Under the pieces are notes generated by a model. The model saw only the letters and a list, made by a program, of their open reading frames with translations, searched no databases and was not told the DNA's origin. A DNA stretch of 44,723 nt from Escherichia phage vB_EcoS_fFiEco02: the sequence record NC_073316.1. One strand, given 5' to 3'. The stretch's first letter is position 1; the number at the start of each line of letters is the position of its first letter. Below are positions 5,565 through 41,573 of the stretch, piece after piece. The position numbers were made by a program, and so were the translations under genes.

Positions 5565-5591
5565 TTATCATCTCCTGTTTAAGTTAACCGA

Positions 5592-5620
5592 ATAGTACCC
5601 TATTATATTGGGGTGCGCAA
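5592..5620 (-). promoter_or_regulatory. sigma70-type promoter TTGCGC-N17-TACTAT with GAATAG-N4-CTATTC palindrome
   Basis: 26 bp identical to the promoter at 15561-15589; drives 5043-5564. Confidence 0.6.
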
Positions 5621-15533: not shown

Positions 15534-15560
15534 AATTATTTCCTCAGTAAGTTACAGGTG

Positions 15561-15589
15561 AATAGTACCCTATTATATTGGGGTGTGCA
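15561..15589 (-). promoter_or_regulatory. sigma70-type promoter TTGCAC-N17-TACTAT with GAATAG-N4-CTATTC palindrome
   Basis: 26-bp identity with the promoter at 5592-5620; drives the - strand island. Confidence 0.6.
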
Positions 15590-27915: not shown

Positions 27916-27945
27916 TTCTCAATTCCTTATATTGTTGGTGTAGGG

Positions 27946-28230
27946 CTAACTATAATAGTTCGCTATTAGGTCGTCAACCTGTTTGAACGACCCGACGACA
28001 AAAACATTCGCGCCGCGTTTGCGCATACGCTCATGCTCACGTAACTGGTGTGGGTCTGGCTTCGTGTTTTCGTCTTTCTTAACCTCGACGAACCAGACGA
28101 TACCGTTGGGGAGAATTACCAGCAGGTCGGGGGCGCCGGAACGCCCCTCGTAGGAAAGTTTACGAACGAGGCCGCCGATAGCCTCGAATCGCTCTTTTGC
28201 GTATTTCTGGATGCGCCCCTCTTTAGTCAT
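27946..28230 (-). CDS. VRR-NUC domain nuclease
   Basis: PD-(D/E)xK-like GAPDLLVILPNGIVWFVEVKK motif; ATG at 28230 overlaps the upstream stop. Confidence 0.6.
   Translation of the reverse strand: MTKEGRIQKYAKERFEAIGGLVRKLSYEGRSGAPDLLVILPNGIVWFVEVKKDENTKPDPHQLREHERMRKRGANVFVVGSFKQVDDLIANYYS
27949..27977 (-). promoter_or_regulatory. promoter TTGACG-N17-TATAGT with AATAG-N4-CTATT palindrome in the spacer
   Basis: same architecture as the promoters at 31677-31705 and 34295-34324. Confidence 0.5.
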
Positions 28231-34263: not shown

Positions 34264-34294
34264 TTGTTTCTCTCCTCTCGTTTGGTATGGGCTA

Positions 34295-34324
34295 ACTATA
34301 ATAGTGAACTATTCACGTTGTCAA
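34295..34324 (-). promoter_or_regulatory. promoter TTGACA-N18-TATAGT with GAATAG-N4-CTATTC palindrome
   Basis: divergent from the XRE gene promoter; palindrome 34300-34314. Confidence 0.55.
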
Positions 34325-37833: not shown

Positions 37834-37862
37834 TTGCACACCCCAACATAATAGGATACTAT
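37834..37862 (+). promoter_or_regulatory. early promoter TTGCAC-N17-TACTAT with AATAG-N4-CTATTC palindrome
   Basis: consensus-like hexamers; conserved leader …ATCGAAACGAGA… shared with 39344 and 42424 promoters. Confidence 0.6.
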
Positions 37863-37896
37863 TCACTTATCGAAACGAGACAGATGAGTGAGGGTT

Positions 37897-39258: not shown

Positions 39259-39343
39259 CTCATTTTTGTTCTATTTCACCAAACGCAACAATCGAAGCGA
39301 CTATTGCAGGAGATGCAACGATACAAACACCAATAAAATTTAC

Positions 39344-39372
39344 TTGCACACTGGGATAGAATAGGCTACTAT
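39344..39372 (+). promoter_or_regulatory. early promoter TTGCAC-N17-TACTAT with GAATAG-N4-CTATTC palindrome
   Basis: palindrome 39359-39374; leader contains ACGAGAGGAGAG. Confidence 0.6.
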
Positions 39373-39403
39373 TCATTTACACGAACGAGAGGAGAGACGG
39401 AAT

Positions 39404-39592
39404 ATGAGTAACAAAAACGAGCATTTGATTAAAGTTACCCCAGTATGGTCGGCGTGGGTTATTGCCTCTGATGGGGAGCACGTACCAAAATTCGTGTTCA
39501 CTGATGAGAAAGTTGCGCGTGAGTGGCTTCGCGCCGGCAAGAAAGGTGAACGCGGCATCATGAAGGTTGGGCTTGTAGGAGACGTATTATGA
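39404..39592 (+). CDS. hypothetical early protein
   Basis: 62 aa; starts MSNKNE with the same 17 nt as the next gene. Confidence 0.45.
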   Translation: MSNKNEHLIKVTPVWSAWVIASDGEHVPKFVFTDEKVAREWLRAGKKGERGIMKVGLVGDVL

Positions 39593-40239
39593 GTAACAAA
39601 AACGAAGTATTCGAGTACCTGATTGACCAGTTACGGCGGCAGCTACCGGTCGTAGATGTTATGGGTGAGATTGAACGGTGGAGTATCGACCGTAGTATCG
39701 CGGGTCGCGGTAACTATACCGACGAGGAAAACGCCATAATCGATGCTTACATCGGCCTGGAGCACAACCCGTACAAGCAACAGTGCGAAGGCCTGGCCCA
39801 TGAAGTGCTGTCACTTAAGAATCAGTTACGTGATGCGTCGGCGCTGGTGGCTGAGTTACAGAAAGAACTTGATATCGCCAATAGCACCGTCGTTCGTTTG
39901 CGTAAAGAGATAGCTAAGTCTACCGGTGACATTGGAGAATACATCGATGCCATGGAGCAATCCGGTTGCTGCAAAGAAGATACTCAGTACAACGCCTGGA
40001 GGCCGCATTATGGTGCGCGACAACCTGTGCCGGATGGGACTATGGTATTTATCCGGTATCGCAACGGGGAGGAGCCGAAACACAGTGTAGCAGCAGAAAA
40101 GCGGTCGTGGATTTGGGATGGAACATACGCAGACATAGTGGAATACAAGATTGACACACAGGAATGTGAACATGACTATCGTTTGGTTCTGTGGTGTAAC
40201 GACTTACAGCAGTGCTCTAAATGCGGGGTGATCAAATGA
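39589..40239 (+). CDS. hypothetical early protein (coiled-coil N-terminal, Cys/Trp-rich C-terminal)
   Basis: 216 aa; ATGA overlap with the upstream gene. Confidence 0.5.
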   Translation: MSNKNEVFEYLIDQLRRQLPVVDVMGEIERWSIDRSIAGRGNYTDEENAIIDAYIGLEHNPYKQQCEGLAHEVLSLKNQLRDASALVAELQKELDIANSTVVRLRKEIAKSTGDIGEYIDAMEQSGCCKEDTQYNAWRPHYGARQPVPDGTMVFIRYRNGEEPKHSVAAEKRSWIWDGTYADIVEYKIDTQECEHDYRLVLWCNDLQQCSKCGVIK

Positions 40240-40499
40240 CCAGCATCTTATTTATCTGGGTATTGTCCGCAGGCCAGATGCAACTAGCGGCATCAGAAAC
40301 GTTTTATTCGATGGAGGCGTGCCAGTCAGCGGCACGCGCCGCAGAGAACGCGCACTTTCTGTTTCAGGGTGACAAGCCCAACGACTCAGAGGTACGCGCC
40401 GCAGAGAACGCGCACTTTCTGTTTCAGGGTGACAAGCCCAACGACTCAGAGGTACGCGCTATCTGCTCGCCTAAGCGACTTGGTAAACAGGAGAAGTGA
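40236..40499 (+). CDS. small protein with N-terminal hydrophobic segment and internal 20-aa tandem duplication
   Basis: MTSILFIWVLSAGQMQLAAS…; AAENAHFLFQGDKPNDSEVR repeated twice. Confidence 0.45.
   Translation: MTSILFIWVLSAGQMQLAASETFYSMEACQSAARAAENAHFLFQGDKPNDSEVRAAENAHFLFQGDKPNDSEVRAICSPKRLGKQEK
40334..40453 (+). repeat. perfect 60-bp tandem duplication (2 copies, plus 7-bp partial third)
   Basis: acgcgccgcagagaacgcgcactttctgtttcagggtgacaagcccaacgactcagaggt repeated head-to-tail. Confidence 0.9.
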
Positions 40500-40501
40500 T
40501 T

Positions 40502-40705
40502 ATGGTACAGAGATACTCTAAGTATGGGTCTGACAACCATTTCGGGGACCGTCACGGGGCGTGGGTTAAGTTTGAGGACTACCAGAATCTTGACCACAAG
40601 CTGTTGGAAGTTGAAGCCGAGTTACAGAAATACAAAGACCAGTTCCCTGATTACGTAGAGTGCGCGAACTGTGGGTCAGTTACACATTTGGAAGGGGTGG
40701 AGTGA
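40502..40705 (+). CDS. hypothetical early protein (MVQRY paralog 1)
   Basis: 68 aa; SD aggaga. Confidence 0.45.
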   Translation: MVQRYSKYGSDNHFGDRHGAWVKFEDYQNLDHKLLEVEAELQKYKDQFPDYVECANCGSVTHLEGVE

Positions 40706-40899
40706 TGGTACAGAGGTATGAGGTGGAAAAATGGGGCCTGCCAGAGCCTGAGATGGCTGAGTACGCATACGGCGATTATGTAGAATACGACGCTTATCTT
40801 AAACTGGAAGCAAAGTTACGTGAATTCGCTGAACAGGTAATGTACGAACCTTGTTCGAAAGTTACAGAAGAAATGGCCCGCGAGATTCTCGGAATATGA
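40705..40899 (+). CDS. hypothetical early protein (MVQRY paralog 2)
   Basis: 64 aa; same N-terminus MVQRY and similar helical YxxYLKLE pattern. Confidence 0.45.
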   Translation: MVQRYEVEKWGLPEPEMAEYAYGDYVEYDAYLKLEAKLREFAEQVMYEPCSKVTEEMAREILGI

Positions 40900-41189
40900 G
40901 CCTTGCAACTGACATCCTGAAACGAAGCGGCCTTGCGCCGCTGTCGCCGAGAGCGAATACACGAATACACAAGCGCCGCCGTAACGCGCTGTTCCCTGAG
41001 ATACAAGAACGGCGCAAAGCCATCCGCGCCTGCGGATTCCAGAGCGGGAAGGCCGTTAATCTAGGCGAGTTTAAGACGAAGGAACGCGCAGCAATCGCTA
41101 ATCGGTTATTTAATTACTGGAAATCGCTGGGATATGATGATATTCCGACGAAACCGCAGAGACGACAATACATCTGGAGACATAAATAA
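40896..41189 (+). CDS. hypothetical basic protein
   Basis: 97 aa from the ATG at 40896 (ATGA overlap); Arg/Lys-rich. Confidence 0.4.
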   Translation: MSLATDILKRSGLAPLSPRANTRIHKRRRNALFPEIQERRKAIRACGFQSGKAVNLGEFKTKERAAIANRLFNYWKSLGYDDIPTKPQRRQYIWRHK

Positions 41190-41219
41190 ACCGTTATTAA
41201 GATAATTCCTACCCGTGGT

Positions 41220-41259
41220 ATCCTCCAGTTACTGCATACTTAATACGCACCTGGAGGAT
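41220..41259 (+). promoter_or_regulatory. stem-loop sequestering the holin ribosome-binding site
   Basis: 9-bp stem atcctccag/ctggaggat; SD ggagga lies in the 3' arm, 6 nt upstream of the TTG start. Confidence 0.4.
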
Positions 41260-41264
41260 TCATC

Positions 41265-41573
41265 TTGGATAAATTTACCGAAACAGTGACGGGGTGGCTT
41301 CTCGCTGCCGCACTAGCCGGAGGGGTAATTGGACTACGACAGCATAAGTCCGTTATTTCTGACCCTATCGACGGCTTCTGCTTTATCGCAACTGGCTTCA
41401 CTTGCGCCGTGTTTGGCGCACCTCTTGCCGCCCAATGGTTTGGCATTACCGGTGAGCGTGAGATAGCTGGCCTCGGATTCATCATTGCCATTCTCTGGAT
41501 ACCCATCTATTCCCGCCTATCCGGTATCGTCGCCGGAGAATACATCGCACGTCGAGGAGGCACAGATGAATGA
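41265..41573 (+). CDS. holin (putative, three transmembrane segments, TTG start)
   Basis: 102 aa with three hydrophobic segments; no in-frame ATG/Met; immediately upstream of second membrane protein and endolysin. Confidence 0.5.
   Translation: MDKFTETVTGWLLAAALAGGVIGLRQHKSVISDPIDGFCFIATGFTCAVFGAPLAAQWFGITGEREIAGLGFIIAILWIPIYSRLSGIVAGEYIARRGGTDE

Follow-up and report, generated by a model that had tools for sequence, protein, structure and literature searches.

Slipped-strand events of the Streisinger type at short direct repeats are well documented, the deletions and duplications of lacI, T4 rII and T7 being the classical cases, and short direct repeats at the spacing of the unit are the footprint expected of replication slippage under the established model. 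Here we describe a 60-bp tandem duplication in Escherichia phage vB_EcoS_fFiEco02 (NC_073316.1), a Kagunavirus (Guernseyvirinae) genome whose whole analysed stretch of 44,723 nucleotides is referred to below as the window. The duplication lies in a plus-strand coding sequence of the phrog_3766 family, with unassigned function (40236..40499). This family occurs in Guernseyvirinae (Kagunavirus, Jerseyvirus) and in some further siphoviruses, few in number, where its members have 66-67 amino acids (67 in the relatives of this phage), in contrast to the 87 encoded here. We propose that the duplication is an isolate-specific, real mutation produced by microhomology-mediated slippage, which we consider likely on the present evidence; that it is real at all, by whatever route, appears highly probable.

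Direct comparison of the two copies (40334..40393 and 40394..40453, both on the plus strand) revealed identity at 60 of 60 bases with 0 mismatches. The two units, each of the sequence ACGCGCCGCAGAGAACGCGCACTTTCTGTTTCAGGGTGACAAGCCCAACGACTCAGAGGT, are directly adjacent in the same orientation without a spacer, and the repeat is in frame with the open reading frame (ORF) 40236-40499, the duplicated peptide being the 20 residues AAENAHFLFQGDKPNDSEVR. A perfect 60-bp repeat of this kind is far beyond chance. It was also detected by Tandem Repeats Finder at 40326-40459 (period 60, 2.2 copies, 97% matches, score 254), and it is the sole substantial tandem repeat of the window, as the remaining ones score at most 53. 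The identity of the copies ends at once on the left (C40333 against T40393) and runs 6 bp further on the right through ACGCGC (40454..40459, plus strand) before C is met by T. Sequence comparison thus bears out the preliminary description: 20 residues of an 87-residue protein are duplicated perfectly and in frame. The partial third copy reported there is present as well, with a length of 6 bp and not 7. This right-hand direct repeat, the "0.1 copy" of a third unit, is part of the ancestral single-copy allele. On the left, the imperfect 14-mer TCAGCGGCACGCGC (40326..40339, plus strand) ends in ACGCGC (40334-40339) and matches TCAGAGGTACGCGC, which occurs at 40386-40399 and 40446-40459, at 12 of 14 positions. 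The new junction at 40393/40394 reads GAGGT/ACGCGCC and was found nowhere else searched.

The ancestral state was read from five relatives, vB_VIPECOTPH05A, vB_VIPECOMC04, fBC-Eco01, fEg-Eco19 and fPoEco01. Alignment with four of them leaves a clean 60-bp gap, with one copy in each and the extra copy absent, and fPoEco01 likewise has one copy and encodes the single-copy 67-residue protein. The 67-residue proteins of all five relatives are 100% identical to the window protein minus one repeat, and the de-duplicated gene differs from theirs by 1-9 nucleotides per pair, all synonymous. The phrog_3766 gene is thus a real one and under strong purifying selection. The duplication is a single event later than the split from the nearest sequenced relatives. 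A very recent origin had been suggested from the lack of divergence between the copies, with related phage genomes named as a check; all five genomes examined are single-copy, in agreement with recency, whereas zero divergence is weak evidence by itself. At 1.5-4% divergence only about 1 difference is expected in 60 bp, even for a duplication as old as that split, and therefore the identity of the copies says little about age.

Further copies of the two-copy allele were sought in larger collections. An 80-bp query across the junction matched 315 records of a phage collection of 50,697 records. No one-piece match ranked higher among these 315, although one of 98% identity or more would come first, and all 30 rows among the matches listed consist of two pieces spanning 74 bp, the geometry of a single-copy allele. 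In exact-word mode, a 44-bp junction query returned only 28-bp matches from the phage collection, all of which end at the junction, and a codon-degenerate junction pattern gave no match in IMG/VR. The same pattern search in GTDB genomes and JGI metagenomes produced 30 matches that were rejected after a tblastn check as chance hits in unrelated high-GC bacteria. At the protein level, none of the 51 clusters of phrog_3766 homologues (more than 1,200 members, from a collection of 5.8 billion proteins) carries the duplication, the longer family members being alternative starts or gene fusions, and the exact 87- and 92-residue products are not on record in the protein look-up. We found no literature linking Kagunavirus to tandem duplication or describing the two-copy allele, and a general literature search on slippage gave nothing phage-specific. 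The repeat had been put forward as a hot spot for copy-number variation between isolates. This did not hold, as no other copy number was met in the relatives, the matching phage records or the protein clusters, and as judged from these sequences the 60-bp repeat is not a copy-number-variable locus.

In the single-copy alleles of the five relatives, the unit is bracketed by ACGCGC, lying within the imperfect 14-mer (TCAGCGGCACGCGC and TCAGAGGTACGCGC, 12/14). As a null for the junction homology, one copy was removed from the window and a 60-bp tandem duplication was placed at every possible position. Junction homology of at least 6 bp occurs at 0.30% of the possible 60-bp duplications of this de-duplicated genome. 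In addition, only one site in it has 14-nt windows with at least 12/14 identity at 60-bp spacing, and this is the site of the duplication. The short direct repeat flanking the unit in the ancestral allele thus exceeds chance expectation. For the single-copy allele as single-stranded DNA, folding predicts a long, imperfect hairpin in which CAGAGAACGCGCAC pairs with GTACGCGCTATCTG and most of the unit is enclosed. The minus-strand fold of this allele reaches -23.4 kcal/mol (z = -3.06), and 0 of 200 shuffles were as good.

We propose the following course for the event. During phage DNA replication, the nascent strand would leave the template when the second ACGCGC had just been copied and would re-pair 60 bp upstream with the first ACGCGC. 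The predicted hairpin spanning the unit may stabilize the nascent strand where it is looped out. Copying the 60 nt again would then yield a head-to-tail duplication that retains one ACGCGC per junction. Since 60 is divisible by 3, the small, conserved accessory gene stays in frame and its product is lengthened by 20 residues.

The position of these residues in the protein was assessed with AlphaFold2. The single-copy protein, modelled with 28 homologues, gave a mean predicted local distance difference test (pLDDT) score of 76.2 and a predicted template modelling (pTM) score of 0.60. The model comprises strands 2-11 and 14-23, which form a beta-hairpin, helix 26-39, loop 40-51 and strand 52-60, with an average pLDDT of 54 in block 41-50. 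The duplicated protein gave a pLDDT of 60.2 and retained helix 26-38 and strand 72-79, and its residues 41-69 are mostly below 50. The added 20 residues are therefore predicted to extend the least confident loop of a beta-beta-alpha-beta fold, at a position between the conserved cysteines C29 and C57 (numbered as in the single-copy protein). This helix-to-strand loop is the part that varies most in homologues of 35-55% identity, with insertions and deletions of 1-2 residues, and both cysteines are conserved together with the N-terminal MTSxLFIWV motif. Other changes in the loop are the loss of G in several phages and of four residues in the homologue P0031. A closer homologue, P0027 (L038:1001-1213), has a 9-bp tandem duplication in the same loop, in which GGCGACAAG occurs twice and gives GDKGDK. 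The BFVD entry A0A7G9VZ10 (87 residues) has 72% identity to the single-copy model over 87 columns, consistent with the window's own product.

According to the models, the protein would still have an intact helix, supplied by copy 1, and an intact strand, supplied by copy 2, and because of this the change is probably tolerated. The 20-residue insertion would then be probably neutral or mildly deleterious, and drift, for instance in bottlenecks during plaque purification, is the most likely route by which the two-copy allele was fixed. Several points weigh against this account. On the plus strand of the single-copy allele the hairpin lacks significance (z = -1.63), and shuffles fold as well as the duplicated allele does. 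The alignment behind the structure models is shallow and of low diversity. A protein that stays invariant among relatives differing at up to 9 synonymous sites is unlikely to take a 20-residue insertion neutrally, and the insertion may be harmful and survive only under laboratory conditions, or it may have been selected.

The alternatives were weighed against this background. An assembly or finishing artefact, such as a 60-bp end overlap of a circularly permuted genome whose record was rotated without trimming, would explain the perfect identity of the copies. Such an origin also agrees with the annotation of the relatives, which have a P22-like small terminase and a circular map, so that assemblies of this group are circular and usually re-oriented; for some assemblers an overlap of k-1 = 60 is possible. 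We nevertheless regard an artefact as improbable. An arbitrary overlap would show at least 6 bp of junction homology in only 0.30% of cases, and since the junction homology here coincides with the genome's sole 12/14 14-mer pair at 60-bp spacing, on which the duplication sits exactly, an arbitrary overlap is disfavoured. The window has no terminal overlap, and the length of the unit is a multiple of 3, for which the chance is 1 in 3. Moreover, a de Bruijn graph contig would not be broken by repeats as short as 6-14 bp, and 60 does not agree with the usual overlap lengths (odd k: 55, 77, 127). The artefact considered in the preliminary description is thus made less attractive by the junction microhomology, although the basis in a sequence record leaves some room for it, which is a further point against a real mutation.

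A real duplication might also have been positively selected, if a longer helix-to-strand loop, or inactivation of the protein, were advantageous on the host used for isolation or propagation. No other variation in the protein is seen among the five relatives, so that a fixed 20-residue change stands out, and perfect tandem duplications are unstable, their persistence possibly needing selection. Natural variants in which the gene is destroyed or fused exist as well, which shows that loss of function is viable. Selection strikes us as unlikely, to about the same degree as an artefact. Far less credible is a programmed variable-number tandem repeat, that is, a contingency locus altering the protein through copy number. 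The small insertions and deletions in the same loop elsewhere (GDKGDK in P0027, the loss of G, the four-residue loss in P0031) would suit such a locus, but all other sequences found have a copy number of 1, and there is no array, no degenerate older copy and no third copy. Slippage at the flanking ACGCGC repeats, in a single isolate, is therefore the explanation that we favour.

The left edge of the duplication, at gene nt 99-104, falls in a GC-rich 37-nt stretch (40317..40353, plus strand; gene nt 82-118) that also holds fusion breakpoints of other family members. This stretch is CGCG-rich with 75.7% GC, against 50.9% for the genome, and ranks at the 99.8th percentile of its 37-nt windows. 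In the protein database, numerous members of the family are in-frame fusions, in which halves of phrog_3766 are joined to upstream partners (phrog_6094 or the family of the 62-residue ORF) or to the downstream phrog_9632 gene. Fusion junctions were read from the DNA of six contigs (L036, L037, L039, L040, L041 and L042) and are given as positions in the single-copy gene. They lie at gene nt 82 in P0037, nt 88 in P0044, nt 94 in P0047, nt 101 in P0049, nt 102 in P0048 and nt 118 in P0042, the last sharing 7 bp of microhomology, AACGCGC, with the downstream phrog_9632 gene. Another five fusions, known from protein sequence only, break at codons 26-33, and one at codon 17; in all of this, detection is limited to in-frame cases that keep about 25 or more residues. 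The fusion events may share descent, and selection could also shape the breakpoint pattern. As a tentative suggestion, which we hold to be possible and still the less probable reading of the pattern, 40317-40353 might be a recurrent hot spot of illegitimate recombination in Guernseyvirinae, lying behind the duplication and behind independent in-frame fusions with both neighbours. The hot spot of variation supposed in the preliminary description fails for copy number, which is one everywhere else, and may hold for illegitimate recombination, given the clustered fusion breakpoints. If so, 40317-40353 would be a natural module-shuffling junction in the accessory region upstream of the lysis cassette, and the breakpoint clustering, if confirmed, would mark a local hot spot of mosaicism.

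The N-terminus of the protein had been described as signal-peptide-like, a description that our analysis does not support. Residues 1-20 contain no K, R, D or E and thus lack the positively charged n-region of a Sec-type signal peptide. The hydrophobic core is short, with a mean Kyte-Doolittle value of 2.63 for ILFIWVLSA and a 19-residue mean of 1.37. It is followed by L-A-A/S, where cleavage would be possible, so that a signal peptide keeps some likelihood. Homologues of only 35-55% identity conserve the segment, and residues 2-23 are modelled by AlphaFold2 as a beta-hairpin with a pLDDT of about 85. A reading of the protein as a spanin or lipoprotein was considered and rejected, as the N-terminal segment has no lipobox cysteine.

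The ATG at 40236 and the stop codon of the gene upstream overlap as ATGA. Starting from another ATG, at 40221, the product would have 92 residues; conservation among the homologues, however, starts at MTSILF. The window protein matches the phrog_3766 profile of 66 positions with E = 7.2e-42 and 142 bits, the match being split into two stretches because of the duplication. No Pfam, NCBIfam or PADLOC match was obtained for this protein. A profile search of 1.84 billion representatives returned 23 matches, mainly the phrog_3766 family with its fragments and fusions, and yielded no annotation; three of the 23 are 840-1542 residues long with 10-13 matched stretches each.

The gene belongs to a series of about 14 small hypothetical ORFs on the plus strand, bounded by a minus-strand helicase/primase region and by a holin-holin-endolysin cassette. 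The region matches 309 phage records, nearly all of them Escherichia or Salmonella Guernseyvirinae (Kagunavirus, Jerseyvirus), with vB_VIPECOTPH05A as the best local match (98.5%). Over window positions 20000-44723, the closest genome is vB_EcoS_fPoEco01, which is collinear with 96.2% identity over 97% of the query. The upstream gene, phrog_6094 (39589..40239, plus strand; 216 residues), is the fusion partner in several deletion variants on other contigs, and the downstream gene, phrog_29624 (40502..40705, plus strand; 67 residues), is untouched by the duplication. The ORF of 62 residues at 39404-39592 adjoins the 216-residue ORF at 39589-40239, and both start with ATGAGTAACAAAAACGA (MSNKNE...), paralogous N-termini that point to an earlier duplication or recombination event close upstream of the 60-bp repeat. 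There is no Rfam match within 39300-41300, and a scan with the sigma-70 consensus found no convincing site just upstream of the gene, the number of sites being not above that in shuffles. The designation of the gene as early in the preliminary description thus finds no support in these data.

Two other repeats of the window were noted. The 26-bp GAATAGTACCCTATTATATTGGGGTG occurs at 5590-5615 and 15560-15585 on the plus strand and at 37839-37864 on the minus strand, two of these being exact and one having 2 mismatches, with 0 expected by chance. Both plus-strand copies lie in AT-rich, intergenic-looking DNA, and GAATAGTACCCTATTATATTGGGGTG is a candidate phage promoter or regulatory box. A 17-bp exact repeat with a TATAAT-like core, GGGCTAACTATAATAGT, is found at two distant sites, 27943-27959 and 34289-34305.

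The duplication provides a clean textbook example of slippage with its microhomology footprint intact, and has little import beyond one isolate. The allele might be worth confirming for annotators or for quality control in phage therapy. With regard to the gene, purifying selection on phrog_3766 is strict, and still it copes with a 20-residue loop insertion and with natural fusions, either by tolerance or because it is sufficiently dispensable.

Among described systems, the internal tandem duplications of FLT3 (FLT3-ITD) in human leukaemia resemble the phage allele in being in frame, tens of bases long and associated with junction microhomology, and in lengthening a segment without truncation. 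Those duplications are recurrent and selected for gain of function, whereas the phage duplication occurs once, and nothing points to selection or to an altered function. The slipped-strand duplications and deletions at short direct repeats are closer. Similar to them, the phage units are arranged head to tail with no spacer and one repeat kept per junction, a perfect repeat of 6 bp, extended to 12/14, stands at the spacing of the unit, and a hairpin is predicted across it. We see no essential difference between the two, except that the event here is inferred from the sequence and was not observed. The kind of event is well known, and the present instance is an undescribed but ordinary one.
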